This document shows positions 47,837-64,000 of a DNA stretch of 64,000 nucleotides, one piece after another. Position numbers and translations under genes: made by a program. The notes beneath the pieces were generated by a model that worked only from the letters and a program-made list of their open reading frames with translations, was not told the origin of the DNA and did no database searches. The stretch comes from a virus (Duplodnaviria; Caudoviricetes): IMG/VR virus record IMGVR_UViG_3300006099_000008, positions 1,219 to 65,218 of that record. One strand, given 5' to 3'. Positions within the stretch are counted from its first letter, which is position 1. Every line of letters begins with the position of its first letter.

Positions 47837-47889
47837 AATTTAACCCAACAAGGTCTCTTTATTTATTTTATTAGAAGGGAGAATTTACC

Positions 47890-48372: not shown

Positions 48373-48447
48373 GAAGGACAAGGCAGAAAGCTCTGATTAT
48401 TATTCATGATAATTGGAGCTTTTTTTTATTTAGAAAAGGAGAAAATT

Positions 48448-49173
48448 ATGAAAAAAGATTGTCAAAAAGAATTTATGAAAATTTTTAATCAGCTTGCTTA
48501 TAAGTATAACCGATACGATGTTTGGAGAGATTTTGTTACAACTTTTGCCTGTTCTATCTCAAATTCTTTAGATAAATGTCACTATGAAGAAAGAGAGAAA
48601 CGTTACTTAAAAATTATCGGAAAGTATGAAAAAACAGAGCAAAATATATTTCCGGAACTTGCTGCTCGAACTGTCATAGCCTTGGAAGAAAATCAAGATC
48701 AGGATTTTTTGGGTGATATTTTTATGATGCTTAACCTTGGGAACAATGTGACTGGACAATTTTTTACGCCATATCATATTTGCAGGCTTATGGCTATGAC
48801 TACATTGGGTAATATTTGTAAACAAATTAGAGAAAAAGGTTTTGTAACTATAAATGATCCTTGCTGCGGTGCCGGAGCAATTTTAATAGCGGCAATTAAT
48901 GAAGCGCGAAAACAACTGAAAAAAGAAAATCTCAACTTTCAGAATAGCATATTTTTGGCGGCTCAGGATATAGATGAAACCGTAGTTCTTATGTGTTATA
49001 TTCAGCTATCTCTCCTGGGCATAGCTTGATTTGTAAAGGTTGGAAGTTCGCTATTTGATCCGATTATACAGAACGATAAATTAGATAATTATTGGTTTAC
49101 GCCTATGTATTTTTCTGATATTTGGGTTATGAGAAGAATTTTTGACGAGGTGACGTCTATTGGCCGGAATTGA
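48448..49173 (+). pseudogene. N6-methyltransferase-like gene interrupted by an in-frame TGA at 49027
   Basis: GQFFTPYHI, DPCCGAG, AQDID motifs; the same frame continues FVKVGSSL..WFTPMYF to TGA 49171-49173. Confidence 0.6.
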
Positions 49174-50392
49174 ACTATATGATTACCAATTAGAAGCTGT
49201 GAAAAAAATGAAAAGCGGCTGTATACTTTGCGGAGGAGTGGGAAGTGGAAAATCACGAACGGCGTTAGCGTATTATTATATTTGCGAAGGAGGAAGCCTG
49301 GGAACGGAAAATTACACGACAATGAATGATCCGCCAAAAGATTTATACATAATTACAACAGCGAGAAAACGTGATACTTTGGAGTGGGAGGGAGAACTTT
49401 CGCCCTTCCTTCTTTCTACGAACAAAGAAGTTAATTTATATTTTAATAACGTGGTTGTTGACTCATGGAACAACATTGGAAAATATACGGATATTAAAAA
49501 GGCATTCTTTATATTCGATGAACAGCGGGTTATTGGCTCTGGAGCCTGGGTAAAGTCTTTCCTTAAAATATGTAAATCTAACCATTGGATTTTACTTTCG
49601 GCTACTCCGGGAGACACTTGGCAGGATTATATTCCTGTGTTTCTGGCAAATGGCTTTTATAAGAATAGAAGCGAATTTACAAGGGAACATATCGTTTACA
49701 GCCGCTTCAGCAAATTTCCTAAAGTCGAAAGATATTTGAACACCGGGCGTTTAATACGTTTGCGAAATTCTATTTTAGTTGATATGGACTTTAACCGGAA
49801 AACAATATCCCACCATGAAGATATTTTTGTAGGATATGACACTGATAAATATAAAAAAATCACTAAAAACCGTTGGGATATTTGGAAAGATTGTCCGATT
49901 ACTAACGCCGGAGAACTCTGCTATGCGCTGCGCAAGGCGGTTAATTCAGACGAATCAAGATTAGTGGCTGCTATGGAGATTTTTGAAAAGCGTCACAAAA
50001 TTATTATATTCTATAATTTCGATTACGAATTAGAGTTGCTTAAAAGCGCCTGCTGGCCATTTGACGGCATTAATATTGTAGAAGTTGCCGAATGGAATGG
50101 TCACAAACATCAGCCGGTACCTGATGGGAACTGCTGGATATATTTAGTTCAATACAACGCCGGCGCCGAAGGGTGGAACTGTGTTAAGACTGATACAATT
50201 ATATTTTACTCACAGAACTACAGCTATAAAATTATGGCGCAAGCTTCCGGAAGAATAGACAGGCTTAATACGCCGTATACAGATTTATATTATTATCATT
50301 TAAAAAGCAGAGCCGGTATCGATCTTGCTATTGGAAAAGCGTTGTCTGCTAAAAAGAATTTTAATGAGGGGAGGTTTGTGAGATGGGATTGA
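49160..50392 (+). CDS. SF2 (SNF2-like) helicase
   Basis: GSGKS, FDEQ, LSATP, AGAEGWN, QASGRIDR motifs. Confidence 0.85.
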   Translation: MAGIELYDYQLEAVKKMKSGCILCGGVGSGKSRTALAYYYICEGGSLGTENYTTMNDPPKDLYIITTARKRDTLEWEGELSPFLLSTNKEVNLYFNNVVVDSWNNIGKYTDIKKAFFIFDEQRVIGSGAWVKSFLKICKSNHWILLSATPGDTWQDYIPVFLANGFYKNRSEFTREHIVYSRFSKFPKVERYLNTGRLIRLRNSILVDMDFNRKTISHHEDIFVGYDTDKYKKITKNRWDIWKDCPITNAGELCYALRKAVNSDESRLVAAMEIFEKRHKIIIFYNFDYELELLKSACWPFDGINIVEVAEWNGHKHQPVPDGNCWIYLVQYNAGAEGWNCVKTDTIIFYSQNYSYKIMAQASGRIDRLNTPYTDLYYYHLKSRAGIDLAIGKALSAKKNFNEGRFVRWD

Positions 50393-50429
50393 TTTTTGGC
50401 TCCTTATTTTCATCTTCAAAAGACTTTTA

Positions 50430-50456
50430 CGCAAAAAACACATAGACTTTTATGAG
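50430..50456 (+). promoter_or_regulatory. phage-specific motif copy 11
   Basis: cgcaaaaaac acatagactt ttatgag. Confidence 0.75.
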
Positions 50457-50492
50457 GAATGTAATAAAGTGTTTTAAAGAAGGAGGAATAAT

Positions 50493-50744
50493 ATGATTGA
50501 TTTAAAACTATTATCGGAAGTGCCAGACGACCAGTTAGAGGTTATTGAAAAAAGCATAGCAGCATGGATAAGAGCAGGCAAACCAAAAATATTGGGATTA
50601 ACGGTAGAAGCGAATACCAATGAGACAATCGCAGTATTTGCCTTAATTGCTGTTGCTTCAGTAGCATGGGGATTTGCAACTGGTTATATTTCTGATAGAT
50701 TTGTAGAACGTCATAGAAGGATCAAAAGAAATACAAAAGCATGA
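50493..50744 (+). CDS. small TM protein (cassette)
   Basis: Motif at 50430, AAGGAGG RBS, hairpin after the stop. Confidence 0.6.
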   Translation: MIDLKLLSEVPDDQLEVIEKSIAAWIRAGKPKILGLTVEANTNETIAVFALIAVASVAWGFATGYISDRFVERHRRIKRNTKA

Positions 50745-50864
50745 GACCAAGAATTGAGCCAGGTAATGGCTCTTTTCTTTTTTTATATGTAGATTAATGA
50801 AAGATGTTTCAGGAGGTGAACTAAAATAGAAATAAATAGCAAAGATATTATAAAAAGAGCAAAT

Positions 50865-51350
50865 ATGATAAAGAAATTTTATTTAGATATAGATAATCCA
50901 AAGGGAGGATTATATCATTATGGCGTTAAAGGTATGAAGTGGGGTGTTAGGAGGACGCCAGAACAGTTGGGGCATTTAAAATGTACAGTTGATAAATCAA
51001 AAGAACATAGTATAATGTCAAATGAGACCGTGTTAAGCAAGAAAGGCTTTATGATAAATGGCAGTAAAATTGTTGATTTTTTATTGAAACCAAAGGCTAA
51101 GCATTCACATGAATTTTTTAATGTTGGCTATACACCACAAGACAGCAGGAGGCTTTTTGAAGACATAGAGAAAGGCTATGATTTATCAAAGGCCACCGAT
51201 GTTGTCAAAATAAACGATATAGAAAAGTTTAGCATTTTTATGAATTTGGGAATAACTTCAAAAAGGCCTTTTAGAACAGTATGGCAAATTGATGGGCAAA
51301 ATTCAAAACCAAGATTAATCACAGCTCATAGGGAGGATAAAAATGTTTAA
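50865..51350 (+). CDS. LYH-YGVKGMKWG leader plus DUF6883-like toxin domain
   Basis: Leader, then KIVDFLL...KHSHEFF.VGY and FRTVWQID...PRLITAH. Confidence 0.7.
   Translation: MIKKFYLDIDNPKGGLYHYGVKGMKWGVRRTPEQLGHLKCTVDKSKEHSIMSNETVLSKKGFMINGSKIVDFLLKPKAKHSHEFFNVGYTPQDSRRLFEDIEKGYDLSKATDVVKINDIEKFSIFMNLGITSKRPFRTVWQIDGQNSKPRLITAHREDKNV
50989..51016 (+). promoter_or_regulatory. sigmaA-like promoter embedded in the toxin linker
   Basis: TTGATA-16-TATAAT. Confidence 0.55.
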
Positions 51351-51540
51351 ATTATACGATAAAGTTAAAATAAAGAAAAATGGAATAACTGGCGTAATTG
51401 TAGATATATATAAAGGGAAAAAAGGGATCATGTATACAATAGAAAGTGATACTAAAAGCTCAGACTATTCAGAAGGTGATTATAAATCGCTATGGCCACT
51501 ATATGATTGTATTTCTGATGATCTTGAATGTTTGAAATAA
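51343..51540 (+). CDS. DUF4926-like probable cognate immunity protein
   Basis: Overlaps the toxin stop; FKLYDKVKIKKNGITGVIVDI. Confidence 0.6.
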   Translation: MFKLYDKVKIKKNGITGVIVDIYKGKKGIMYTIESDTKSSDYSEGDYKSLWPLYDCISDDLECLK

Positions 51541-51605
51541 AAAATAACAAAGATAAAATACTTTAATCGCTACACTTTGTGATATGAGGAGAATGAAGAT
51601 ATATT

Positions 51606-51923
51606 ATGATGGAATTGAATTTTGATTACTTTTTTCGCCAATTAAAAGCAGGGCTAAATATAGATGAAACCCGCTTCTACTTCAGAGATGATCCTGAAGA
51701 AGAGGAGCATTATTTAGGGTATTGCAGAGGCTATCCTAAACCATATTGGATTGGATATTGTGATATAAAAGACGGAGCTGATTTTTGGACAGCGGAAGAG
51801 TTGGTAAATGCTCCAATTTTTAATGGAAAAAGTCTAAAAGACAAATGGGAATATGTATGTATATGTGGCATTGAAGGCTTGCCTTTGGACGATTGGTTTG
51901 AATGTATGAATCATGTAGATTAA
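51606..51923 (+). CDS. orphan immunity-like protein
   Basis: Ends ..PIFNGKSLKDKW, echoing the F.GKSL of 7441 and 33697. Confidence 0.5.
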   Translation: MMELNFDYFFRQLKAGLNIDETRFYFRDDPEEEEHYLGYCRGYPKPYWIGYCDIKDGADFWTAEELVNAPIFNGKSLKDKWEYVCICGIEGLPLDDWFECMNHVD

Positions 51924-52014
51924 GGCAATTCTAAATCACGTTAGCAAAAGAGGGATTAAGATGCGTATATGTTTTAATCGCTCTTTTTCTATATAGTTGC
52001 TGCCGTTGATGGAA

Positions 52015-52257
52015 CTAAGCAGGAACAGCTTTATTAGTGCAGATTGGATTATGGGTTTTCAACGAAACTTTGCCACACTTCAGCTCTGTATCGACGCTGT
52101 ATTTTGCATTTGTTGTAATTGTTACACAGTAGCATAATCCGATAACAACAATTACAGTGATGGGGATCAATGAATTGCTATTACCGAGAATATTGCTTTG
52201 AGTAACCTTTGCGGCTAAATTATTATTCATAAATAAATACCTCCTTAGTGAAATCAC
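52015..52257 (-). CDS. small TM moron protein
   Basis: AAGGAGG RBS on the minus strand (probable ATG 52230); hydrophobic core. Confidence 0.5.
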   Translation of the reverse strand: MISLRRYLFMNNNLAAKVTQSNILGNSNSLIPITVIVVIGLCYCVTITTNAKYSVDTELKCGKVSLKTHNPICTNKAVPA

Positions 52258-52452
52258 AGTGCAACATACTAATAAGAGGGGATTAAAATTGATGAAACTA
52301 GGAAGAGCCCCCTACTCTTCTTGCGGTTTATATCAGTTTTAACCTCTCTTTTCTTATATATACTTATATACTTAATAACATTATATAGCATTAAGTATAT
52401 ATAATCAATCAGTATATAGAAATTTGGTTGTTTTGAAAGGAGAAAATTAACG

Positions 52453-52848
52453 ATGAAAGAAAAAATGAAAAATGAAGCTATAGCAAGAATGGAATTTTTA
52501 AACATTCATTCAAGTGCTATAAAGGAATTTGCCGACGAAGATAAACTTAATCTATCCGTCGGTATATTTTTATATCATTTAAACGATGCACAGTTAAGAA
52601 GAGTTCACGAATTTGAAACGGAAACAGACTGTATGGTATATCATGTTATATTAAGCAATACCGCGATTGGACATATGCTGACGTTTCTATATGTTTCTCT
52701 ATATATGGAAGAATGGGAACAGGACCAGAAAGATCTTGAAGAGAAGACGCCGATTGCTTATGTAGCTAATATTGACGATGAGGTTTTATCAGAATTTGGC
52801 GTTGTTGGGATAGAAACATGTTCTGGCGCGGTTATCAGAACGGCTTGA
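52453..52848 (+). CDS. hypothetical protein
   Basis: GAAAGGAG RBS; ORF track. Confidence 0.6.
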   Translation: MKEKMKNEAIARMEFLNIHSSAIKEFADEDKLNLSVGIFLYHLNDAQLRRVHEFETETDCMVYHVILSNTAIGHMLTFLYVSLYMEEWEQDQKDLEEKTPIAYVANIDDEVLSEFGVVGIETCSGAVIRTA

Positions 52849-52866
52849 TATGAAAGGAGATATAGT

Positions 52867-53412
52867 ATGACATTAGTAAATATTGATTCTGTTATCGGAG
52901 CGATAGGTCTTGCCGCAGGAATATTTAGCATTGGCTATGCTATTGGTCAGCACAAAAAACTGAATGATATTAGCAACAAAATTGGAAAATCTATTGAGGA
53001 AATATCAGCTGATATTAATATTGATTTGTCTGATGTAATTGTAAAAAAAGCGGTTGATAAGGCAGTCGAAGAAGAAACTGTATCTGCGGTAAGACATGCT
53101 ACAAAAAAAGCAGTTGAAGATATAGAACTGGATATAAGCAGGCAGATTAAAGAGGCTGTTTCCTCTGCATATTCAGATATAGAAAAAGCCGTTGCCAGTG
53201 AAACAGCTAAAAAGGTTTCGCAAATAAATATACAAAGCTTAAAAAATGAGGTGGTTAAACAGGCCAAAAAAGATGCGGCTAAAAAGCTTGACGATAGTTT
53301 AGATGATATTTTGGAGAAATTTAACAATGATCTAAACCAGGTTTCTTATATTTATAAGTCAATAATAAATACTTTTCCCAAAGAAAAGGAAATAAAATTT
53401 AGTCTTATGTAA
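52867..53412 (+). CDS. TM-anchored coiled-coil protein
   Basis: N-terminal TM followed by heptad-rich helices. Confidence 0.6.
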   Translation: MTLVNIDSVIGAIGLAAGIFSIGYAIGQHKKLNDISNKIGKSIEEISADINIDLSDVIVKKAVDKAVEEETVSAVRHATKKAVEDIELDISRQIKEAVSSAYSDIEKAVASETAKKVSQINIQSLKNEVVKQAKKDAAKKLDDSLDDILEKFNNDLNQVSYIYKSIINTFPKEKEIKFSLM

Positions 53413-53428
53413 AGGAAAGGAGAAAAAT

Positions 53429-53650
53429 ATGATTAAAGACATATTAAAAGAATTGATTCAAATTAGAAAAGAACTCCAAGATATTAAACTTATCCTGAAG
53501 TTCAAATGTTTATACAATTACGAAATAGAAAGAAAAAAAGTTAATGGAGAAACTATTAGAATTCGCCATATTCGGCCAGATCCTTTAGAAGAACTTCGTA
53601 AAGAAGAACGTACTCTTCAACAATGTCGGAGGAACGGATATCGTTCATAA
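53429..53650 (+). CDS. hypothetical protein
   Basis: RBS; ORF track. Confidence 0.5.
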   Translation: MIKDILKELIQIRKELQDIKLILKFKCLYNYEIERKKVNGETIRIRHIRPDPLEELRKEERTLQQCRRNGYRS

Positions 53651-53719
53651 AAAATAACACCCCCTCAATTTATAAAATAATTATATCATAAACTATATGA
53701 AAACTGAAAGGAGAAAAAT

Positions 53720-54352
53720 ATGATTAAAATTGAAAAAACAAAAGTCGTTGGTTTTGAAGAGGCTATTCGCGGAATGAGAAATCCAATGAACAGCTGGGAA
53801 AGAAGCGACAGCAGTTTTTATGTTTCAAATAAAGAATTTTTTGTAACAGGACCAAATGATTATGACCTTATGATGAAGCTTGCTGAAGGCGGAGCGGTTC
53901 ACGCTAAGTACAGACGAATGATTGCGGTTTATGTTGATATTACGGCTCCTCTATATTGGTGGAAGGAATTTGATACATACAAAGTTGGAACGGTGGCAAA
54001 CTCCTGTTCAACCATGCACAAAATTCATGCTAAAGAATTTGAAATTGAGGATTTTTCAACAGAGCATTTAAACGAGTGTAACAAAGAGTTTTTCAAAACG
54101 TTGGTCTGTCTTTTGAATACTTACAGAAATAAATATATTGAATATCATGACAAAACTTATTGGTGGCAAATGATCCAGCTTCTTCCTTCTTCCTACAACC
54201 AGAAACGAACGGTCATGCTTAATTATGAAGTTTTGGTTAATATATACAAAAGCCGTTTAAATCATAAACTTGACGAGTGGCACGAGTTTTGTAAATGGAT
54301 TCAAGGACTGCCTTATTCTGAGGTTATCACTTGCGATAAGAAATATGAATAA
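53720..54352 (+). CDS. divergent ThyX-like protein
   Basis: AIRGMRNPMNSW, H.KY.R, APLYWWKEFDTY, QLLPSSY; the canonical RHRxxSxxxxSxR motif is not present. Confidence 0.5.
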   Translation: MIKIEKTKVVGFEEAIRGMRNPMNSWERSDSSFYVSNKEFFVTGPNDYDLMMKLAEGGAVHAKYRRMIAVYVDITAPLYWWKEFDTYKVGTVANSCSTMHKIHAKEFEIEDFSTEHLNECNKEFFKTLVCLLNTYRNKYIEYHDKTYWWQMIQLLPSSYNQKRTVMLNYEVLVNIYKSRLNHKLDEWHEFCKWIQGLPYSEVITCDKKYE

Positions 54353-54441
54353 AACAAAAATCATGTGGAAACTATGTTGAAAACATGTTAAAATTTTAAA
54401 TAAGAGCTGTTAAATATGTGCCCATTTTTGGAGGTGATTAA

Positions 54442-54807
54442 GTGGCAATTGAAACGCTAACGGCATATCAGTCAAAAATAGATGTTATACTTAAAAGATA
54501 TGTTGAGGACATTAAGCGGATATATGGAGGCTGCTTAAAGTCTGTGATTCTTTATGGTTCTTATGCTAGAGGCGATTTTAGGGAAGATTCAGATATTGAT
54601 ATTATGATTTTGATAGATATGACTGATATTGAAATTAAAGAATTTCGCCATAGGCTTTCAGAAGTTACCTATGATTTTAATGAAAATTTTGATGTTGATA
54701 TTAAACCAATAGCAAAGAGTAGTAATCATTTTTTTAAATGGCTGTCGGTCTATCCTTTTTATGCAACCGTTAAAAGGGAGGGAGTTGTTCTATATGGAAC
54801 GGCATGA
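54442..54807 (+). CDS. MNT nucleotidyltransferase antitoxin
   Basis: LYGSYARGD..EDSDIDI motif. Confidence 0.85.
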   Translation: MAIETLTAYQSKIDVILKRYVEDIKRIYGGCLKSVILYGSYARGDFREDSDIDIMILIDMTDIEIKEFRHRLSEVTYDFNENFDVDIKPIAKSSNHFFKWLSVYPFYATVKREGVVLYGTA

Positions 54808-55219
54808 TGAAGGAAGCATTAAAGACTTGGTATGCCATCGTATAAAAACCGCCAAGAATGATCTAAGAGTAGCTTGTATGCTTTTTAAAGAAAGTGAATA
54901 TCGGACAGCAAATAATAGGGCTTATTATGCGATTTTTCATGCTATATCAGCTATTCATGCTCTTGATGGAAAAGCATATAAACGACATAAAGACACGCTT
55001 GCAAATTTTAATAAAGATTATATACGGACAGAGATTTTCCCAAAAGTTTTCGGACGAAAAATTATGGAAGCAGAGGAAATAAGACACGCAAGCGATTATG
55101 ACGATTTTTATATTGCAACAAAGTCAGAAGCTGAAGAACAGATTGAAACAGCAAGGAAGCTAATTGAGCTTATAGAAGCGTACTGTATAGATAAAATTAA
55201 TGAAATAAATCGGGATTAA
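54794..55219 (+). CDS. HEPN-domain protein
   Basis: ANNRAYYAIFHA..H...R.ASDY; overlaps the MNT gene. Confidence 0.85.
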   Translation: MERHDEGSIKDLVCHRIKTAKNDLRVACMLFKESEYRTANNRAYYAIFHAISAIHALDGKAYKRHKDTLANFNKDYIRTEIFPKVFGRKIMEAEEIRHASDYDDFYIATKSEAEEQIETARKLIELIEAYCIDKINEINRD

Positions 55220-55273
55220 GAGTTGAGATTAAAAATCTGGGCTCTTTTTGAACAGCAACAGCATAATAAAACA

Positions 55274-55300
55274 CGCGAGAAAAACATGCTCTATTATGGA
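55274..55300 (+). promoter_or_regulatory. phage-specific motif copy 12
   Basis: cgcgagaaaa acatgctcta ttatgga. Confidence 0.75.
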
Positions 55301-55316
55301 AAGGAGGTTGAGAATT

Positions 55317-55508
55317 ATGAAAGAACTTAAGGCTAAAAACGCTAAACAGCTGGATATTTGTTTGAGAATGCTGTATGCCGAAAGAGTAATATTTATTGTA
55401 AGAGTTATAGAAAACTCAAATCAAAAAATAGAATACAGAATCAACGTACATGCTGATGAACAAAAATTTGAAATGCTTGAAGAGCGTTACAGAATTCTAA
55501 TTTCATAA
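55317..55508 (+). CDS. small protein A (cassette)
   Basis: Motif at 55274 and AAAGGAGG RBS; paralogue of 56464..56655. Confidence 0.65.
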   Translation: MKELKAKNAKQLDICLRMLYAERVIFIVRVIENSNQKIEYRINVHADEQKFEMLEERYRILIS

Positions 55509-55593
55509 CAAACTATCAAAAGGTAAAAGGGCTTAACAGGTCCTTTTACTCTTTTATCAAATATGCTATAATATTTAAAAAGGAGGGTTTTTC

Positions 55594-55803
55594 GTGAAAA
55601 CAATACACTTTGATGGTTGCGAACCATATAGAAAAAAAGACGGAACATGGGATATAAGACGTTATTCCTATGAAGAAGAATATCCAGACGACCGAATACG
55701 ACATTGCGACATGTGTACGGTATGTGGTTTTCCCGCTTATCCTGAATGCACTAAGACGTGTAATAACGGGGCACTTGATCCTGACAGAAAGGCCGTTAAA
55801 TAA
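55594..55803 (+). CDS. small Cys-rich protein B
   Basis: TTTACT-16-TATAAT promoter; paralogue of 56741..56956. Confidence 0.6.
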   Translation: MKTIHFDGCEPYRKKDGTWDIRRYSYEEEYPDDRIRHCDMCTVCGFPAYPECTKTCNNGALDPDRKAVK

Positions 55804-56033
55804 TGAGAATGGAAATTGTTATTAAAACTACTGAAAGCTGAGATTAAAAATCTTGGCTTTTTATTTTTCTAAGGAGGAAGAAGAAATGAAAGAAAATAAG
55901 AAAAACATAGGAAATGAAAAATTAAAAAAAGCACCGCGTATAAGACTTGAACAAGAAATACAAAAAGAAATTCTTGCCTTTATTAACAAAAAATAATATA
56001 ATTGAGCCAGAACACTCATGAAGAAGGTAAAAA

Positions 56034-56342
56034 ATGAATTTGTTTGATGAAATTTACGATAAATATAAAGGTTCTGGCTTTGAATTTACTTATAAAAATA
56101 AAAAATTAAGTGGATCTAAAACTATATTTAAAAAAGACGTCATTAAAATTGATCAATCAAAACGTAATAATGATGAGATACCGATGTTTATAAAATGTGA
56201 AAACTGTAATAATTATATGGATTTTAAAGTTGGTAAAAATGATAATCTTGATGGGAAATGGGTTTGTCCGTCATGTTCGAGCGAAGTTAAAGAACGGAGT
56301 GTTTATGTTAAGTTAAATAACGAGAACGGAAATTATTATTAA
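56034..56342 (+). CDS. zinc-ribbon protein
   Basis: CENC...CPSC. Confidence 0.55.
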   Translation: MNLFDEIYDKYKGSGFEFTYKNKKLSGSKTIFKKDVIKIDQSKRNNDEIPMFIKCENCNNYMDFKVGKNDNLDGKWVCPSCSSEVKERSVYVKLNNENGNYY

Positions 56343-56420
56343 AAAGCATAAACAATAACTGAAAGCTGGCTGAGATTAAAAATCTCGGCTTTTTTTGAAC
56401 AGTAATAACGATAATAAATA

Positions 56421-56447
56421 CGCTAAAAAAACATGCTCTATTATGGA
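56421..56447 (+). promoter_or_regulatory. phage-specific motif copy 13
   Basis: cgctaaaaaa acatgctcta ttatgga. Confidence 0.75.
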
Positions 56448-56463
56448 AAGGAGGTTGAGAATT

Positions 56464-56655
56464 ATGAATAGTTTTTTAGCAAGAAACGATAAGCAGCTTG
56501 GCATTTGTTTAAGAATGCTGTATGCAGATGGATTTCAAGGAGTTGTTGAAACTGTAAAAAATGATAAAAACAAAATTGAATTTCATATTAGCATAGATTC
56601 TGATGAACAAACATTTAGGCTACTTGAAGAACGCTATGAAACCTTGATTTCGTAA
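56464..56655 (+). CDS. small protein A' (cassette)
   Basis: Motif at 56421; QL.ICLRMLYA..LEERY..LIS shared with A. Confidence 0.65.
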   Translation: MNSFLARNDKQLGICLRMLYADGFQGVVETVKNDKNKIEFHISIDSDEQTFRLLEERYETLIS

Positions 56656-56740
56656 TTGATTTTTCAACGGTAAAAGGCTGTTAAACACAGTCTTTTACTT
56701 TTATATTTTATATGCTATAATCAACTAAAGGAGTGGTAGC

Positions 56741-56956
56741 GTGAAAGTTAAATCAAGAATGGCTTGTCCAGTAAGGCAGAAAGACGGCTCATGGAAAGTT
56801 ATTACAAAGGAGTTTGAAGAGGATATTCCGGATTTAGGAAGACACAGATTAATATGTAATAAGTGTGGATTTTCTTCTTATCCTGCTTGTAAAGAATGGT
56901 GCCCCGTTGAACAAAGTACATTGGCCAAGGAAAAAGAAAAATCGACTGAAAGCTGA
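56741..56956 (+). CDS. small Cys-rich protein B'
   Basis: KDG.W and C..CG...YP.C shared with B. Confidence 0.6.
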   Translation: MKVKSRMACPVRQKDGSWKVITKEFEEDIPDLGRHRLICNKCGFSSYPACKEWCPVEQSTLAKEKEKSTES

Positions 56957-56998
56957 GATTAAAAATCTTGGCTTTTTATTTTTTAGGAGGAAAAGGAA

Positions 56999-57325
56999 AT
57001 GACAATTAACGAATACCAAAGCTTAGCTTTGAGAACGGCAAATCCAAGTGGTGAAAATCTGTCTAATATAGGTCTAGGCATAGCCGGAGAGGCCGGAGAA
57101 GCAGCCGATTTAATTAAAAAGCATCTGCATCAAGGCCATGATTTGGATAAAAATCATTTGGCAAAGGAATTTGGAGACGTAGCCTGGTATATAGCTGTAG
57201 GCTGTTATATTATCGGCTACGATTTAGAAACAGTGCTAAAAATGAATATTGACAAATTGAAGGAGCGGTATCCAGACGGATTCGATTCGGAACACAGTAT
57301 TGATCGAAAAACAAATGATATTTGA
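56999..57325 (+). CDS. MazG-like nucleoside triphosphate pyrophosphohydrolase
   Basis: LGIAGEAGE..DLIKK..EFGDVAWY..NIDKL..RYP. Confidence 0.85.
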   Translation: MTINEYQSLALRTANPSGENLSNIGLGIAGEAGEAADLIKKHLHQGHDLDKNHLAKEFGDVAWYIAVGCYIIGYDLETVLKMNIDKLKERYPDGFDSEHSIDRKTNDI

Positions 57326-57503
57326 GGTGAGACATGAATAAACGAAAACTTTTTAAAAATAGAATATTCTCGATTTTGTTAATTGCCATTGGAGTCATTA
57401 CATTGATATTCGACAACGATGCTACATTTCTTATATTTGCTTTAATGGTTGGAGCGCCTTTATTTTTTGCCAAGAAAAATTTAATCGAATAGGGGATAGA
57501 ATA

Positions 57504-57830
57504 ATGCAGATAAAAAAAGCCGGAGGCAAGATATTCGGAATGACATTAACAGCTTCCGAGCAAAAAGCAATGGATATGGAAATACGAAGGCAGCTTGCCG
57601 ATTACGAACGAAAGCATGAAATTGAGATGGACTCGCTGATTCTTTGGCAGCTGCATAAGCAGCTTGGTTTTGGACCTAAAAGGCTAAGGAAATTTTATGA
57701 TAATTTTGTGCCGGCTATGGACGAGCTGCTTAAACAGTATGAGGCTGAAGATTCCGAATGTTTTTTACTTTGTGCTCAGAAGCTCAAAGAATGCGGGGTT
57801 GACGTTGAGAAGTGGCATAACGAGAGGTGA
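57504..57830 (+). CDS. hypothetical protein
   Basis: LH..LGFG.KRL..F pattern; ORF track. Confidence 0.6.
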   Translation: MQIKKAGGKIFGMTLTASEQKAMDMEIRRQLADYERKHEIEMDSLILWQLHKQLGFGPKRLRKFYDNFVPAMDELLKQYEAEDSECFLLCAQKLKECGVDVEKWHNER

Positions 57831-57842
57831 ATTATATTTATT

Positions 57843-58028
57843 ATGGTAATTATAAGTGTAACCATATCAATATTCTGCATAGCCTACATGATAAAATGGA
57901 AAATAATAACAACGTCATTGTTTTATTACATTGAAAAGAAATATCATGTGCTTCCTGACGATAAAGAAATGAGAGAATGCATTGAATTTGTTATGAAAAA
58001 TATTGTTAAATTTATAACTGCGCGTTAA
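57843..58028 (+). CDS. small TM protein
   Basis: GAGAGGTG RBS; N-terminal TM. Confidence 0.5.
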   Translation: MVIISVTISIFCIAYMIKWKIITTSLFYYIEKKYHVLPDDKEMRECIEFVMKNIVKFITAR

Positions 58029-58074
58029 TCATTGATTTTAAAATGTTAAGGCAATAACGAGAGGTGAGTTATAT

Positions 58075-58281
58075 TTGGCGTTAAAAGTTAAAAACTTAAA
58101 GAAAAACACCGAAGGATATTTTGATCCAACTGCCTATGAGGCTATTAGAAATGTGGATAAAGAAAGCATAAAATTTCACAGACTTCTTGAAACCATATTT
58201 TATATTTGCGATATAGCAGGATTTAAAATCGAAGAGCGTATTGTTGTTAGAAATAAGAAAACCGGAAGGATTTGGAGGTGA
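58075..58281 (+). CDS. hypothetical protein
   Basis: KNTEGYFDPTAYEAI..GF.IEERIV pattern. Confidence 0.55.
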   Translation: MALKVKNLKKNTEGYFDPTAYEAIRNVDKESIKFHRLLETIFYICDIAGFKIEERIVVRNKKTGRIWR

Positions 58282-58365
58282 GTAACTTGACTATATTCAT
58301 ATTTAGTGTTAGAATTTAAAAATGATCAAAAGTATTTTATGAGCTAAAATTGTGAGGCGAAAACT

Positions 58366-59415
58366 GTGATAGATGAGAATTTATTTCAGAATATAAAAGA
58401 AAACGGTGATTTTGAAATATTACCTTGCAACACTATTGCTGATAAAACAGGACTTACAAAATTGGAACTTACTTCGGCGCAAAAGATACAAGTAAGCGCT
58501 TTGTTGCAGCAATTGCCATTAATAGCAGCTTCGGGAACAATGGCCCAAGCATATTCCGTAAGCTTCTACAGAGGAATGCCTCATACGCTAATGCAGCTTA
58601 AAAATGGCGGAGTTGGCAGTCCAATTATAGGCGGCGACGGACGGATTGCGGGAAGCGCCGTATTTAATCCTATGACCACTCAGGCCGCTGTTTTGGGCGT
58701 GTTTAGCGTTATGTCTATTGCTTCTGGACAATATTTTCTGTCACAGATTAACAACGAACTTAAAATGATGAAACTGAATGTTGACAAAATTCTTGAGTTT
58801 CTTTATGGCGACAAAAAGGCGGAGCTTATATCGGAGGTGAGTTTTGCTCAATATGCCTATAAAAACTATAGCTCTATTATGGAGCATGATGAGCAGCGGG
58901 TGGCCACTATAATAGGGCTTCAAAAAGCAAGAAAGGTTGCAATGAAAGATGTTGAGTTTTATATTAGTGATTTAGACTCTGCTGTTAATTCTAAAGCAAA
59001 TTCAGATATAGTGTCCTTGGTTGATAAAGCTTTTCAAATAAAGGAGTGTCTTGAAATATCAACACAGCTTTATATTATGAGCGGCTTGATGGAAGTTTAT
59101 TATGCTCAGAATTATGACGATAATTATATTTCCTATATTAAGGAAGATATGGTTTCTTATATAAGCAAATGCGAAAAACGTATGCTTAGTGATTTTAGTA
59201 TGCTAAGCGGTCAGATACATGGCTTAAAAGAAAAACCTTTGAAAAAAATTGATAAGCCTGCTCTTGAAAAGAAAGTGGATTGTGTTGTTGAGATGCTTAG
59301 CGGAAATTCGGAATCTGAGCTGAGAAAGTCATTAAAAAAAGCATTACCGTACTCAGGCACAAAGAGCGAATATTATCTTGACAAAGCCGGAGATGCATAC
59401 TTGAAAGCTTCATAA
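58366..59415 (+). CDS. 349-aa accessory protein of unknown function
   Basis: Long ORF; hydrophobic hairpin followed by a helical domain. Confidence 0.65.
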   Translation: MIDENLFQNIKENGDFEILPCNTIADKTGLTKLELTSAQKIQVSALLQQLPLIAASGTMAQAYSVSFYRGMPHTLMQLKNGGVGSPIIGGDGRIAGSAVFNPMTTQAAVLGVFSVMSIASGQYFLSQINNELKMMKLNVDKILEFLYGDKKAELISEVSFAQYAYKNYSSIMEHDEQRVATIIGLQKARKVAMKDVEFYISDLDSAVNSKANSDIVSLVDKAFQIKECLEISTQLYIMSGLMEVYYAQNYDDNYISYIKEDMVSYISKCEKRMLSDFSMLSGQIHGLKEKPLKKIDKPALEKKVDCVVEMLSGNSESELRKSLKKALPYSGTKSEYYLDKAGDAYLKAS

Positions 59416-59449
59416 GAGTACAATTTTAGTCTGCATTTTTAATAAATTG

Positions 59450-59760
59450 CGGGCTATTTTTCTGGCCATTTTTGTGATATAAAAGTGGCCAACGCCCACT
59501 TTTAAAATTTTTTCATCAAATTTTTGAAGGATTTTCTTTGCTTGTACGGACAATTTTAATGATTTTAGGCCAATTTTGTGGCCAACTGGCCACTTTCTGC
59601 CCACTTTTAAAATCAAAAGTGGCCACGAAAAACCCAGTATTTATGCGGGTTTGCGGGCTTTCTGGCCACTTTCCCACTTTTTTTACTATTTAATTGTGAT
59701 AAAAAGTTTATATATTTATAATAATATAGCAAATAAAAGTGGCCAACTGGCCACAAGCAC
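59450..59760. repeat. non-coding iteron-like cluster (AAAAGTGGCCA / TGGCCACTTT), candidate replication origin
   Basis: Several direct and inverted copies around an AT-rich stretch at ~59690-59735. Confidence 0.6.
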
Positions 59761-59813
59761 AAAAATGTTGTTTTTTACAAGTTTTGAGATAGACGTTTAA
59801 ACTATTTTAGCCA

Positions 59814-59840
59814 CGCGAAAAATACATAGACTTTTATGAA
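59814..59840 (+). promoter_or_regulatory. phage-specific motif copy 14 (upstream of the nuclease-RNAP operon)
   Basis: cgcgaaaaat acatagactt ttatgaa. Confidence 0.75.
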
Positions 59841-59896
59841 GAGAGAGGAATAAAACGGCCATTTTTAAATATGGCACTCTCTTTTTTTTATTTTCA

Positions 59897-60208
59897 ATGG
59901 AAAGGAGGCTCATTAAAATGTTGGAAAGCGGTTTTCAGTCAAGCCTGATTAAAGAAATAAAAAATATGTTCTCAGGCTGCATTGTCATGAAAAATGATTC
60001 CGGATATATTCAAGGTATTCCCGATTTGCTGGTGCTTTATAAAAATAAGTGGGCCGCCTTGGAATGCAAGAAAAATGCGAGCGCTAAAAAGCAGCCAAAT
60101 CAAGAGTACTATGTTGGACTTATGAACGAAATGTCATTCTCAAGGTTTGTATACCCGGAAAATAAGGAGGAAGTGTTACATGAACTTCAACAGTCATTTG
60201 AATCTTGA
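59897..60208 (+). CDS. VRR-NUC-like nuclease / resolvase
   Basis: ES.FQ..LIKEI..QGIPDLLVL..WAALECK PD-(D/E)XK pattern. Confidence 0.7.
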   Translation: MERRLIKMLESGFQSSLIKEIKNMFSGCIVMKNDSGYIQGIPDLLVLYKNKWAALECKKNASAKKQPNQEYYVGLMNEMSFSRFVYPENKEEVLHELQQSFES

Positions 60209-60737
60209 AGGGCAGCACGCTTTTCTTGGCGCAAGTAAATACCACTGGATTAATTATGATGAAGCAAAGGTAGCCGAGTCGTATTCAAAATTTTTGGCAA
60301 CTCAGAAAGGAACGGTTCTTCATGAGTTTGCGGCTCAGTGTATTGCGCTTGGACAGAAGCTTCCTAAATCGCAAAAGACATTAAACATGTATGTAAACGA
60401 CGCAATTGGCTATAAAATGGTGCCAGAGCAAATACTCTTTTATTCGGAGAACTGTTTTGGCACAGCAGACTCAATTATGTTTCGCAAAGGATTCCTTAGA
60501 ATACACGATTTAAAAACGGGTGCGATTCCGGCCCACATGGAGCAGCTTGAAATATATGCCGCTCTTTTTTGTTTGGAATATAAAATAAAACCGGCAGACA
60601 TTGAAATGGAATTAAGGCTTTATCAAAATAATGAAATTATATTCCATAATCCGACAGCCGAGGACATTGCACCGATTATGGATAAGATCGTTATATTTGA
60701 CAAAGTAATTAATAAGATTAAGGAGCAGGAGGGTTAA
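60180..60737 (+). CDS. PD-(D/E)XK (Cas4/DUF2800-like) nuclease
   Basis: HAFLGAS..GTVLH..FGTAD..IHDLKTG..QLEIYA. Confidence 0.7.
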   Translation: MNFNSHLNLEGQHAFLGASKYHWINYDEAKVAESYSKFLATQKGTVLHEFAAQCIALGQKLPKSQKTLNMYVNDAIGYKMVPEQILFYSENCFGTADSIMFRKGFLRIHDLKTGAIPAHMEQLEIYAALFCLEYKIKPADIEMELRLYQNNEIIFHNPTAEDIAPIMDKIVIFDKVINKIKEQEG

Positions 60738-60740
60738 TGT

Positions 60741-63494
60741 ATGAATCCGATTGCGGAGGAAATTTTAATGCACTATGGAATGCCAAAGCGTTCAGGACGT
60801 TATCCTTGGGGGTCTGGCAAAGATCCATATCAGCACAGCGGCGATTTTTTAAGCCGAGTTCAGGAGCTCAAAAAATCAGGTCTCAGCGAAACGAAAATTG
60901 CCGATACCATGGGATTATCCACAACGCAGCTTAGAACACAGATAAGCTTGGCTAAAGATGAAAGACGTTCTCTTCAGGTTGCGACAGCTAAAGGACTTAG
61001 GGAAAAGGGATATAGTCTAAATGAAATTGCCGAAAAGATGGGCTTTGCCAACGATTCGTCTGTAAGAACTCTTCTTAATGAAAATTCAGAGGCACGTATG
61101 AATCAGGCGAAGAAAACCGCCGAATTTCTTAAAAAGCAGATTGACGAAAAAGGAATGATTGACGTTGGCATAGGCGTGGAGCGCGAGCTGGGCATTTCAA
61201 AAGAGAAATTAAATCAGGCTTTGTACATGCTTGAAATGGAAGGTTATCCGGTTTATGGAGGCCGCGTTGATCAGGTTACTAACCCTGGCAGGAAAACAAC
61301 ATTAAAAGTGATTTGTCCTCCAAACACTGAACATAAAGAGATATACAATTTTGAAAATATTAACTCCTTAAGGGATTATATTTCCCATGATGACGGCGAA
61401 ACATTTGATCCGAAATTTGTTTATCCTAAAAGCATGGATTCAAAGCGGCTTAAAATAAGATACGCTGACGAGGGCGGAGTTGATAAAGACGGCGTTATCG
61501 AAATACGTCGCGGAGTCGACGACCTGTCTTTGGGAAATTCGCATTATGCTCAAGTTCGTATCCTTGTTGACGACACTCATTATATAAAAGGCATGGCCGT
61601 TTATTCAGATGATTTGCCTAAAGGCATTGACGTGCTCTTTAATACAAATAAAAAGAGCGGAACGGCAAAAGAAGACGTTTTAAAACCTATTAAAAACGAT
61701 CCCGACAATCCATTTGGGTCGTTGATTAAAGATGGTATTAACGATCCTGACAGCGGCATTCCTGAAAGGGGAGGACAAAGCTACTACTATGATAAAAACG
61801 GAAAAAAGCAGTTATCTCTTATCAATAAACGCGCGGAAGAAGGCGATTGGGGCGAGTGGGCCGATAAGCTTCCTTCTCAGTTCCTTTCAAAACAGAGCAT
61901 CACATTGATAAAAAAGCAGCTCAACCTTGCAGCGGCAGACAAGCAGTTTGAATTTGATGAAATTTGCTCTCTTACAAACCCTACAGTCAAGAAAAATTTG
62001 TTAAAATCTTTTGCTGATGACTGCGACTCCGCGGCAGTTCACCTACAGGCAGCCGCTTTGCCAAGGCAGAAGTATCAGGTTATTCTCCCTCTTACATCAA
62101 TTAAGGATAATGAAGTGTACGCTCCAAACTACAACGATGGCGAAACAGTTGCTTTAATTCGTTATCCGCATGGCGGCACGTTTGAGATTCCTATTCTTAA
62201 AGTAAATAATAAACAGGCGGAAGGACGGAAGATTTTAGGGAATACTCCAGCTGACGCCATAGGCATTAATAAAAAGGTTGCTGACAGGCTTTCTGGAGCT
62301 GATTTCGACGGCGATACTGTTATGGTTATTCCATGCAATTCATCAAGAAGCAAAGTGAAGATTACATCTACTTCGCAACTAAAAGGGCTTGAAGGCTTCG
62401 ATCCAAAGATGGATTACGGAACTGTACAGAACGGAGACAATTACTATAACAACGCTGGACACAAGATAAAAGTAATGAGCAATACCCAGACAGAAATGGG
62501 AAAGATTTCAAACTTAATTACTGACATGACACTTAAGGGTGCTACACAGGACGAGCTGGCGAGAGCGGTGCGGCACAGTATGGTTGTCATTGACGCTGAG
62601 AAGCATAAGCTTGACTATAAGCAAAGTGAACGTGACAATGGTATCACTTCTTTGAAGAAAAAGTATCAGGCTCATGAAGACAATGACAGATACGGAGGAG
62701 CGTCTACTTTGATTTCAAGGGCAAAGTCCGAGGTTTCTGTTTTAAAAAGAAAGGGCAGCCCTACCATTGACAGGGAGACAGGAGAGCTGAGCTGGAAGAC
62801 TGTTAACGAGGAGTATGTTGACAAGACGGGGCGCGTTAAAACAAGAATGCAAAAGAGTACCCGTATGGCTGAAACAAAAGACGCCCGTACTCTCATATCA
62901 GACGCCGACACTCTGGCTGAAAGGGCTTATGCAGATTATGCCAACAAAATGAAAGCACTTGCCAATCAAGCCCGCAAAGAGATGGTCACTACCGGCAAAA
63001 TAAAATACTCGGCCTCTGCTAAAAGTACATATCAGCAAGAGGTAGACTCCCTTATGGCAAAGCTAAACGTAGCTTTAAAGAACGCTCCGCGCGAACGCCA
63101 TGCTCAGACTATGGCTAACTCTGTTGTAGACGCTAAGAAAAAACAAAACCCTGATATGACAAAGGCCGAGATTAAAAAAACCAGTCAGCAGGCATTAACA
63201 GCGGCGCGTACAACTGTTGGAGCTAAAAGAACTCCTGTTAATATAACGGACCGCGAATGGGAAGCGATTCAGGCTGGCGCAATAAGTGAAAACGTACTTA
63301 CGCAAATTCTTAATAACGCAGATATTGATGCTGTTAGACAAAGAGCAACGCCGCGTGCGGCAAATACTCTAAGCGTTGCTAAAACAAACCGCATTTCAGC
63401 ATTAAATGCGTCTGGATATACAACTTCTGAAATAGCCAAAGCCCTTGGAATATCGGCTTCAACTGTATCAAAGTATCTAAATGGAAAGGAGTGA
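60741..63494 (+). CDS. single-subunit two-barrel RNA polymerase homologue (YonO / cellular-RdRP-like) with HTH domains and LMH-YG leader
   Basis: QVR....IKGMAV, RYPHGG..EIP.L, ADRLSGADFDGD motifs; two N-terminal HTHs and one C-terminal HTH. Confidence 0.75.
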   Translation: MNPIAEEILMHYGMPKRSGRYPWGSGKDPYQHSGDFLSRVQELKKSGLSETKIADTMGLSTTQLRTQISLAKDERRSLQVATAKGLREKGYSLNEIAEKMGFANDSSVRTLLNENSEARMNQAKKTAEFLKKQIDEKGMIDVGIGVERELGISKEKLNQALYMLEMEGYPVYGGRVDQVTNPGRKTTLKVICPPNTEHKEIYNFENINSLRDYISHDDGETFDPKFVYPKSMDSKRLKIRYADEGGVDKDGVIEIRRGVDDLSLGNSHYAQVRILVDDTHYIKGMAVYSDDLPKGIDVLFNTNKKSGTAKEDVLKPIKNDPDNPFGSLIKDGINDPDSGIPERGGQSYYYDKNGKKQLSLINKRAEEGDWGEWADKLPSQFLSKQSITLIKKQLNLAAADKQFEFDEICSLTNPTVKKNLLKSFADDCDSAAVHLQAAALPRQKYQVILPLTSIKDNEVYAPNYNDGETVALIRYPHGGTFEIPILKVNNKQAEGRKILGNTPADAIGINKKVADRLSGADFDGDTVMVIPCNSSRSKVKITSTSQLKGLEGFDPKMDYGTVQNGDNYYNNAGHKIKVMSNTQTEMGKISNLITDMTLKGATQDELARAVRHSMVVIDAEKHKLDYKQSERDNGITSLKKKYQAHEDNDRYGGASTLISRAKSEVSVLKRKGSPTIDRETGELSWKTVNEEYVDKTGRVKTRMQKSTRMAETKDARTLISDADTLAERAYADYANKMKALANQARKEMVTTGKIKYSASAKSTYQQEVDSLMAKLNVALKNAPRERHAQTMANSVVDAKKKQNPDMTKAEIKKTSQQALTAARTTVGAKRTPVNITDREWEAIQAGAISENVLTQILNNADIDAVRQRATPRAANTLSVAKTNRISALNASGYTTSEIAKALGISASTVSKYLNGKE

Positions 63495-63756
63495 ACTAAA
63501 TAATAAGATGACGAAATATGCTTTAACAACTTTTGACAATCCTTATAATCCATTTGAACAGTTCACTTTATGGTTTCTGTTTGATGAAGAAAAGGGTTAT
63601 CATTCTTCCGCTTATTTGGGGAGAATTGCGAGAACTTCAGATGAACTTTCTGAAGAAGAGAATAATTCCGAGATAGAAAGAGCAATTGACGAGATTATTA
63701 AGTATGATTTTCGAAATATTTATAAAAAAGTTAAAATGCAAGCAACAAATGCGTAA
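63481..63756 (+). CDS. small conserved protein downstream of the polymerase
   Basis: LTTFDNPYNPFEQF..W..FD..KGY pattern. Confidence 0.6.
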   Translation: MERSELNNKMTKYALTTFDNPYNPFEQFTLWFLFDEEKGYHSSAYLGRIARTSDELSEEENNSEIERAIDEIIKYDFRNIYKKVKMQATNA

Positions 63757-64000
63757 ATCAAACAAATAGCTTTGTTTTATGCAAATACTTAGCTATTGTC
63801 ATTGGCGCTAAATGATTGGATTTGTTCACTTTACCACAAAATAGGATAAATGTTTTATGTTTTAATTTATTGATTTTATGCTGTGGCACAGGCTTTGCGG
63901 CAAGTTTAAGCTTAAGACTTAGTTTATTGAATGCTGTGCTTATACATAGAATATTTAATTACGTTTTAAAGCTTGTGAACAACAAACCGCAATTGAGGAA

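Follow-up and report, generated by a model that had tools for sequence, protein, structure and literature searches.

Can a single phage polypeptide find its own promoters and transcribe from them, and can it be delivered with the DNA to do so? This question is raised by the gene at 60741-63494 of a 64,000-nucleotide stretch of viral DNA (Caudoviricetes), referred to below as the window, which corresponds to bases 1219-65218 of the 65,218-bp IMG/VR record IMGVR_UViG_3300006099_000008 (rated complete by CheckV). In the open reading frame (ORF) listing of the window, the gene is a single ORF on the plus strand with an ATG start; it encodes 917 residues, and 509 bp separate its end from the right end of the record. 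A reading of the DNA made without database searches (the sequence-only reading) had proposed that the product is a compact DNA-dependent RNA polymerase (RNAP) with two double-psi beta-barrels (DPBBs), three helix-turn-helix (HTH) domains and a leader for packaging into the virion. Our analysis supports that the gene almost certainly encodes a two-barrel-fold member of the family of phage 1706 gp75 with an intact catalytic centre. Beyond this, we lean towards the reading that it is a virion-delivered, promoter-specific DNA-dependent RNAP.

All motif strings on which the sequence-only reading had relied are present in the 917-residue protein in the expected order. VDKDGVIEI lies at residues 247-255, QVR...IKGMAV at 271-287, RYPHGGTFEIPILKV (RYPHGG..EIP) at 474-488 and ADRLSGADFDGD at 514-525, with LSGADFDGD at 517-525, while the three HTH strings are at 48-65, 91-109 and 893-912 and LMHYG is at 9-13. 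This motif content exceeds chance by far. An alignment of 77 sequences of relatives (47-59% identity to the query) was the basis for an AlphaFold2 model and for the analysis of conservation. The model has a mean predicted local distance difference test score (pLDDT) of 85.7 and a predicted template modelling score of 0.77. In a Foldseek search of PDB, the top match was QDE-1 (E 7e-9, probability 1.0), followed by RDR2 (1.6e-6), Thermus phage P32 gp64 and P74 gp62 (about 2-3e-6) and P23-45 gp96 (2e-4), with Pol IV, Pol II Rpb1 and bacterial beta' at lower ranks. VIA-align with a library of 48,161 chains gave a similar picture: the best match was ZmRDR2 (7w84_A, Z 15.2, 373 residues aligned, rmsd 4.5, model residues 228-754), followed by QDE-1 (7y7p_A, Z 13.4) and P74 gp62 (8f5m_A, Z 11.0). 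The large subunits of Pol I, Pol II and archaeal RNAP had Z 8.7-9.6 and Pol I, Pol II and beta' chains about 8.6-9.6, and the crAss-like virion RNAP gp66 (over 377 residues) and P23-45 gp96 each had Z 6.7. In a library of predicted viral structures, the matches were phage proteins labelled 'RdRP' and P23-45 gp64. Two stand-alone DPBB chains aligned to residues 442-533 (7dww_A, Z 8.8; 7dbo_B, Z 8.6). Thus, the second barrel is supported by isolated barrel chains in addition to the whole-core alignments and motifs, from which alone the support for the first barrel comes. Because the model aligns to RDR2, QDE-1, gp62 and isolated DPBB chains, the predicted fold does contain two DPBBs, and the structural part of the sequence-only reading was right.

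Two-barrel RNAPs share eight invariant residues, which in QDE-1 are D709, R738, K743, R962, P964, D1007, D1009 and D1011 (PMC2919709). In the protein studied here, D250, R273, K283, R474, P476, D521, D523 and D525 are invariant in 77 of 77 relatives; they pair with the QDE-1 set by motif order and conservation rather than by residue-level superposition.

The protein is part of the PHROG 4291 family, since its match to the profile phrog_4291 ('RNA-dependent RNA polymerase') has E=0 and 1365 bits and extends over residues 4-916 on profile positions 7-908/909. By tblastn, full-length homologues with 40-54% identity are present in 251 phage records, the carriers being phages of Arthrobacter, Gordonia, Streptomyces, Rhodococcus, Microbacterium and Curtobacterium, the Lactococcus 1706 group and Faecalibacterium phage FP_oengus; the homologues are labelled 'HTH DNA-binding protein' or 'RNA-dependent RNA polymerase' in these records. 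In BLASTP, phage 1706 orf75 is 40% identical over 991 columns and shares the N-terminal motif. The highest identity to another sequence was 84% among the matches listed. With HMMER and 1.84 billion representatives, the family amounts to 2,639 clusters (50% identity) at E<=1e-3 and to 1,006 at E<=1e-30, and a word-indexed search returned at least 8,000 candidates; certain members may belong to prophages, as judged from their contigs of several hundred kb.

The relationship to other polymerases is visible only by fold and motifs. In Pfam, only the C-terminal HTH is above cut-off, and the PF05183 family of RNA-dependent RNA polymerases (RdRPs) gives 15.5 versus 23.8 bits (E 0.007, residues 512-628 only). 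Because the gathering threshold is not reached, the protein is not filed in PF05183, and the relationship is at the level of the fold. No SPbeta-like record is among the 251 tblastn matches, and similarity to YonO was detected neither by tblastn nor by phmmer. The family profile searched against PDB sequences matched HTH proteins only, and phmmer with the single polymerase sequence returned nothing significant.

The family has been described before. The phage 1706 protein was listed as one of five distant 'YonO-like' families by Ruprich-Robert & Thuriaux in 2010, with the 1706 and SPbeta proteins treated as separate, distantly related families (PMC2919709). Koert et al. described the same protein in 2021, with HTHs at both ends, DxDGD and an HHpred match to PF05183, reported a conserved block around it with a helicase, an HNH endonuclease and a RecB exonuclease, and considered the polymerase a signature gene of a phage group across Actinobacteria and Firmicutes (bioRxiv 10.1101/842583). 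Thus, the novelty implied by the sequence-only reading was overstated, as the family is huge and already catalogued, and by its sequence the gene is a new metagenomic member of a known, computationally described family. What goes beyond the descriptions in the papers examined is a winged helix, the link to a promoter-like motif, and the connection of a 'structural protein' label to a polymerase fold.

According to the model, the protein consists, in this order, of a disordered motif, two HTHs, a winged HTH, the two-barrel core, a helical region and a last HTH (Table 1). The C-terminal HTH is above the Pfam cut-offs (HTH_23 2e-8, HTH_7 5.8e-8, Sigma70_r4_2 2.7e-7) and has structural matches in VIA-align to IstA (8b4h_A, Z 7.1), GcrA (Z 7.0) and the HTHs of Tc3. 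The Pfam HTH matches of the N-terminal units are sub-threshold. In profile-profile comparisons, the three HTHs are mutually homologous (hhalign 97.5%, 98.4% and 97.2%, E 6e-12 to 4e-15), with HTH1 and HTH2 matching the C-terminal HTH at 97.5% and 98.4%, and at the level of sequence profiles they are paralogous copies. Thus, the three HTHs proposed from the sequence alone are all real; overlooked was the winged helix at residues 121-197, which matches GntR-type winged HTH chains (3edp_B, Z 7.4; 6on4_A, Z 7.1; 2hs5_A, Z 6.9).

We consider it likely that the polymerase is a DNA-dependent RNAP, and a repeated element is a candidate for its promoter. CGC-N7-ACA-N7-TTATG occurs at 17 sites with at most one mismatch, while 1.29 are expected and 0 of 100 shuffles reach 17; 16 of the 17 sites are on the plus strand. 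Thirteen are intergenic, lie between 31.5 and 59.8 kb, and precede a Shine-Dalgarno sequence and ATG by 25-45 nt, often right after a terminator-like hairpin. In FP_oengus, there are 17 sites with identical spacing versus 2.8 expected, the last of which (27684) is upstream of the polymerase operon. Single or double copies are also present just upstream of the polymerase operon in MT835495 (609), Mudcat (L010:19017; Arthrobacter) and ReqiPepy6 (L019:12598; Rhodococcus), and in these three phages the copies are followed by a purine-rich stretch. Streptomyces phage HotFries has 6-7 copies of a variant, (T)CGCA...TTTATAGT-GAGACCCCTAC, with related geometry, and phage 1706 has ten copies of the variant TTTTACA-N5-CTATAGTAGAAAGAAGG, six of them in a row just past the tail genes. 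Because the Shine-Dalgarno sequence begins 2-3 nt past TTATG at three sites, the transcription start must lie within the motif or at its end. Such a block, conserved over about 25 bp and with an A/T-rich stretch at its end ahead of a purine-rich start, is reminiscent of the promoters of phage-encoded polymerases such as T7 and SP6. On balance, it seems credible from this distribution that the polymerase reads CGC-N7-ACA-N7-TTATG.

We also considered other interpretations of the motif. A sigma-70 promoter with -35 and -10 elements is excluded because of the geometry: the gap between TTTACA and TATAGT is only 5 nt in phage 1706, and TTATGaa lacks the T at -7. Moreover, the predictions of a promoter scan were barely above those for shuffles, and none coincided with a motif site. 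In a hairpin promoter, the N7 block would pair with bases past TTATG; the mean minimum free energy is -3.9 kcal/mol versus -2.4 kcal/mol for shuffles, and there is no site-specific pairing because downstream segments swapped between sites give -4.1 kcal/mol. A search of the genome for sigma-70 region 2 found none while the control worked, and no sigma factor is among 20 early ORFs. A search of the genome for a T7-like RNAP gave no match, but was uninformative because the control was equally silent.

Other repeats and flanks were noted in the same region. At the polymerase operon, the 3' flanks of the motif in Mudcat (L010 19017-19055) and in MT835495 from human gut (L012 609-650) share GAGGGAGAGGGA, and the flank in the window (59814-59850) is GAAGAGAGAGGA; these flanks seem to represent a purine-rich initial transcribed region that is conserved across phyla. 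Two near-identical cassettes (55274-55900 and 56421-57000) each comprise the promoter-like motif, a small gene and the same terminator hairpin (55833, 56948), and one metatranscriptome contig links 55829 to 56945, as if some variant had a single cassette. There is also a second strand-specific word: the window has 13 copies of TTATATTTG (29979-60699) versus 2.0 expected, FP_oengus has 31 copies of TGATATTT (L009 21-31746) versus 1.6 expected, and ReqiPepy6 repeats CTATATTTC. No copy of TTATATTTG or TGATATTT is on the minus strand or outside the early/replication half, and many are in coding sequence or between a Shine-Dalgarno sequence and a start codon.

As for packaging, phage 1706 orf75 is an 'RNA-dependent RNA polymerase' in RefSeq and a 'structural protein' in the GenBank record of the phage's authors, EU081845. 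The same record applies the label 'structural protein' to orf7, which is directly upstream of the terminase and contains the DUF7211-like LQHRGVIGMRWG, and likewise to orf62 and orf71, which are outside the morphogenesis module and have no homologues. This pattern is the one expected of virion proteomics and not of homology. ReqiPepy6 gp106 is annotated as 'similar to 1706_gp75, structural protein'. The label goes unmentioned in both reviews treating the protein as a polymerase, and the FP_oengus paper contains no proteomics. Thus, packaging as proposed from the sequence alone receives backing from a 40% identical homologue with the same N-terminal motif, at the level of annotation, and we cautiously favor that the polymerase is virion-delivered.

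Residues 1-33 are predicted to be disordered (pLDDT <50), yet are among the most conserved of the polymerase. H11, G13, S18-G19-R20 and G24-S25-G26 are invariant or nearly so in the 77 sequences, and the same string is present in homologues from Arthrobacter, Streptomyces, Lactococcus, Faecalibacterium and gut phages. It resembles Pfam DUF7211 (PF23847), a 25-residue motif of the HYGVKGMKWGVRR type, and the DUF7211 model matches five other proteins of the genome (E 6e-13 to 2.5e-7), four of them inside the window. In 4 of 4 relatives tested, DUF7211 proteins are encoded in the packaging module. One of the two small DUF7211 proteins (33.3 and 50.9 kb) also has a weak match to DUF6883. As a sequence feature, the L-x-H-Y-G element common to the polymerase and the DUF7211 proteins is real; that it is part of a leader is an interpretation.

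Based on these data, we suggest the following model. A single polypeptide with a two-barrel core (residues about 226-754) and all the residues for binding metal and substrate would use four fused modules of DNA-binding type, i.e. two N-terminal HTHs, a winged helix and the C-terminal HTH, to find its own promoters without a sigma factor and to transcribe DNA. The promoter would be CGC-N7-ACA-N7-TTATG, with three blocks one helical turn apart and the start at or beside TTATG, and would head the early and replication operons as well as the polymerase's own operon. Copies of the enzyme would be built into the virion, delivered with the DNA and start early transcription, and the disordered L-x-H-Y-G...SGRYPWGSG motif would take part in incorporation into the head. 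Observed here are the ORF and its predicted fold, the conservation of residues, the homology of the HTHs, the enrichment and placement of the motif, the synteny and the label of the 1706 homologue; from these we infer that the protein makes RNA, that its template is DNA, that it recognises the promoter, that it is packaged in this phage and that the N-terminal motif has the role proposed. That DNA dependence, reading of the motif, virion delivery and a role of the N-terminal motif in head incorporation all hold together is possible but doubtful. Equally tentative is the extension to the family, which would then represent a widespread, sigma-independent RNAP that is delivered with the virion in ordinary siphophages (45-75 kb) infecting Firmicutes and Actinobacteria, abundant temperate gut phages included, with the three HTHs and the winged HTH reading a compact single-block promoter and an N-terminal signal for head incorporation or the prohead protease, shared with DUF7211 cargo such as the toxin-like proteins of this genome.

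Several points weigh against this model. The polymerase is the one transcription protein common to these phages, and its link to the motif is by co-occurrence only. In the actinophages, the 3' block is TATAAT or TATAGT and usable by host RNAP as a -10 element. The 'structural protein' label of 1706 orf75 is at the level of annotation, and DNA-binding contaminants can co-purify with virions. The Pfam model of DUF7211 does not match the N-terminus of the polymerase even at E<=10, and a profile-profile comparison aligned 13 columns (acidic-x-x-L-x-H-Y-G-V/T; hhalign 82.6%, P about 1e-5), which is only modest support because the comparison was chosen after the resemblance had been seen by eye. Finally, a biochemical or transcriptomic study of any family member was not found in the literature searched.

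The alternative that fares best is that the same enzyme with the same promoter specificity is not packaged. It would be made by host RNAP after infection or induction, like T7 RNAP or YonO, take over middle or late transcription and amplify its own operon, and the N-terminal motif would bind another partner or be an initiation 'finger' reaching the active site, a catalytic or initiation role that its extreme conservation would fit as well. This alternative would account for the position of the gene outside the structural genes, in the replication module and behind one of the sigma-70-like candidates that do exist (59694-59722), and for an N-terminus that is not a DUF7211 match. It would also provide what a temperate phage requires, because at prophage induction no injected enzyme is available and host-RNAP promoters or leaky self-expression are needed. 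Moreover, among the bacterial-virus relatives of this branch only YonO has been characterised, and it is an RNAP that transcribes the SPbeta late operon and is not part of the virion (PMC5467207). However, the 1706 homologue was labelled 'structural protein' by the authors characterising that phage, the motif heads the earliest-looking clusters of small genes and not the late structural operon (the structural half has one degenerate copy), and FP_oengus has no motif site between the polymerase gene and the terminase. Overall, we regard an unpackaged enzyme as rather unlikely, although it deserves to be taken seriously.

We consider it improbable that the protein drives no promoter-dependent transcription and instead, similarly to QDE-1 and RDR2, copies RNA or single-stranded DNA into RNA (double-stranded RNA, primers, or regulatory or anti-defence RNA), with the HTHs merely tethering it to phage DNA or replication intermediates. 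The nearest solved structures are indeed RNA-dependent or dual-template enzymes, the top matches being cellular RdRPs, and they are joined by the weak PF05183 match; also, within the replication module the gene has nuclease genes on its flanks and a helicase gene close by. However, four modules of the type that binds double-stranded DNA are hard to explain in this way, and the phage already encodes a primase-polymerase of 1,318 residues. In addition, the characterised phage members of the superfamily (YonO, crAss-like gp66, P23-45 gp64 and gp96) are all DNA-dependent, and across phyla the gene is accompanied by the conserved promoter-like signal. That the protein derives from a polymerase but has lost catalysis and serves in DNA binding or as a structural component, as the many records saying only 'helix-turn-helix DNA-binding protein' and the 1706 label might be taken to mean, is highly improbable, since 77 sequences of about 50% identity would not be expected to keep all eight catalytic-centre residues and additional core motifs unchanged without enzymatic selection.

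Table 1. Position of the polymerase gene, its parts, the promoter-like motif copies, the DUF7211 matches and the neighbouring genes (window coordinates except where marked)
Feature	Position	Strand	Basis
Single-chain two-barrel RNA polymerase homologue, 917 residues, PHROG 4291 family	60741-63494	+	ORF, phrog_4291, model, fold matches
N-terminal motif L-x-H-Y-G-x4-SGRYPWGSG-xx-PYQ, residues 1-33	60741-60839	+	conservation, pLDDT <50
Tandem HTH1 (about residues 48-65) and HTH2 (about 91-109)	60846-61073	+	helix pattern in model, hhalign
Winged-helix domain, residues 121-197	61101-61331	+	VIA-align
Two-barrel catalytic core, residues 226-754	61416-63002	+	VIA-align, Foldseek
First-barrel motifs D250-G251, Q271-x-R273, K283-G284-M285, beta-subunit-like	61479-61601	+	invariant columns, motif order
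Second barrel, residues 442-533, with R474-x-P476-H477 and metal-binding D521-F-D523-G-D525	62064-62339	+	DPBB chains, invariant columns
Helical region between core and C-terminal HTH, residues 755-870	63003-63350	+	DSSP of model
C-terminal HTH, residues 871-917	63351-63491	+	Pfam, VIA-align
Endonuclease-like gene, first in operon	59897-60208	+	phrog_93 endonuclease 1.2e-16
RecB/Cas4-type exonuclease gene, second in operon	60147-60737	+	phrog_3953 exonuclease 6e-84; DUF2800, PD-(D/E)XK matches
Small conserved ORF after polymerase gene	63481-63756	+	phrog_4303 3.9e-36
Motif copy, sole one in structural half, 1 mismatch, between large terminase and portal	5343-5367	+	
Motif copy	31555-31579	+	
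Motif copy	32903-32927	+	
Motif copy	35225-35249	+	
Motif copy, directly after terminator-like hairpin	35704-35728	+	
Motif copy, 1 mismatch	36265-36289	+	
Motif copy	37073-37097	+	
Motif copy	37862-37886	+	
Motif copy; Shine-Dalgarno starts 3 nt past TTATG	38166-38190	+	
Motif copy, 1 mismatch	39510-39534	+	
Motif copy	50430-50454	+	
Motif copy; Shine-Dalgarno starts 2-3 nt past TTATG	55274-55298	+	
Motif copy in duplicated cassette	56421-56445	+	
Motif copy upstream of operon with polymerase gene	59814-59838	+	
DUF7211, N-terminus of ORF 3030-3503 directly upstream of large terminase	3108-3158		Pfam
DUF7211 within C-terminal extension of portal	7028-7087		Pfam
DUF7211, N-terminus of small protein (33.3 kb)	33290-33343		Pfam
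DUF7211, N-terminus of small protein (50.9 kb)	50910-50960		Pfam
DUF7211 in further small ORF outside window	G000 967-1023		Pfam

The order endonuclease, RecB-type exonuclease, polymerase, small ORF near the right genome end is conserved (Table 1). The endonuclease gene is syntenic with Mudcat gp92, HotFries gp54 (VRR-Nuc) and 1706 orf68, and the exonuclease gene is syntenic in all relatives examined. The small ORF, the true start of which is probably M10 at 63508, follows the polymerase gene in every relative (1706 orf76, Mudcat gp95, HotFries gp57, ReqiPepy6 gp107); its family has 7,491 relatives, mostly of 83 residues, and is as abundant as the polymerase family. A complex prediction for the small protein and residues 34-917 of the polymerase had a score of 0.00, which is evidence neither way.

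The proposal that the phage is temperate is plausible, as it has a tyrosine integrase gene (about 30285-31193) and a solitary repressor-like ORF on the minus strand. This ORF (37423-37770) is the lone sizeable one on the minus strand of the early region, and its weak matches to the HTH repressor-like phrog_1468 and phrog_1373 make it a candidate lysogeny repressor. That such a polymerase is unusual for a temperate phage was not borne out, as FP_oengus, an integrase-bearing prophage, carries the same gene. Just upstream of the connector and terminase genes, 1823-2713 encodes a protein of 296 residues with an N-terminal HTH_17-like match just under the Pfam cut-off and a Fic/DOC domain (5e-19). 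The 614-residue head protein at 9258-11102 has an N-terminal Peptidase_S78 prohead protease domain (phrog_3270) and presumably is a protease-scaffold-capsid fusion, as in the 1706 annotation 'putative capsid protein/putative protease', and the tape-measure protein (15075-23669) is very long with 2,864 residues. In four mouse-gut metatranscriptome runs of one study, 5-6% of the sampled words are present and short contigs match parts of 44001-64000 with 99% identity or more, which faintly suggests that the mouse gut is home to the phage or to a close relative. These contigs are scattered (151-305 nt, depth 2-4), carry no start or end information, cover almost nothing of the polymerase gene and are uninformative on expression.

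If the model is correct, the protein would be the smallest known promoter-specific two-barrel polymerase, i.e. one of the cellular type, with its initiation factor in the same chain. It would be a tractable model for promoter search and DNA melting by two-barrel enzymes that use neither sigma nor TFIIB, and possibly an orthogonal transcription tool. Ordinary siphophages, a very large group, would join the N4-like, crAss-like, jumbo and Thermus phages as users of virion-delivered transcription; among them are the FP_oengus-like gut prophages, found in as many as 40% of the gut virome samples of one study (PMC5883640). Owing to the conserved promoter-like motif, a single protein and a single template would suffice to test the idea.

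Several known systems are close to the polymerase. The crAss-like phi14:2 gp66 (6vr4) and Thermus P23-45 gp96 (8h2m/8h2n) are single-chain two-barrel enzymes delivered with the virion for early genes, and the non-virion P23-45 gp64 and P74 gp62 (8f72, 8f5m) have a similar single-chain core. However, gp66 is a domain of a protein of >2,000 residues and gp96 is fused to the tape-measure protein, whereas the polymerase described here is free-standing, has 917 residues and is encoded in the replication module; also, there are no HTH-type modules in the parts of the gp66, gp96, gp64 and gp62 chains aligned here. QDE-1 (2j7n, 7y7p) and RDR2 (7w84) are the best matches to the core (Z 13-15, about 373 residues) and share the invariant set of Asp, Arg, Lys and Pro residues. 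By contrast, they are only 10-15% identical, copy RNA or single-stranded DNA in silencing pathways and are without HTH modules, while the polymerase lacks their head and neck domains. SPbeta YonO also has both barrels in one polypeptide, is encoded by a temperate Firmicutes phage and is on the RdRP-like rather than the multisubunit branch; it differs in transcribing a late operon and in not being reported as a virion protein, fused HTH modules are unreported for it in the literature examined, and no solved structure was found in PDB searches. No essential difference separates the polymerase from the 1706 gp75 family (the 'HTH-containing putative RNA polymerase' of FP_oengus, Mudcat gp94, ReqiPepy6 gp106 and proteins of Streptomyces BI-cluster phages): homology is over the full length, HTH placement, barrel motifs and DxDGD are alike, and the N-terminal motif, the operon order and the place beside the right genome end are common to all.

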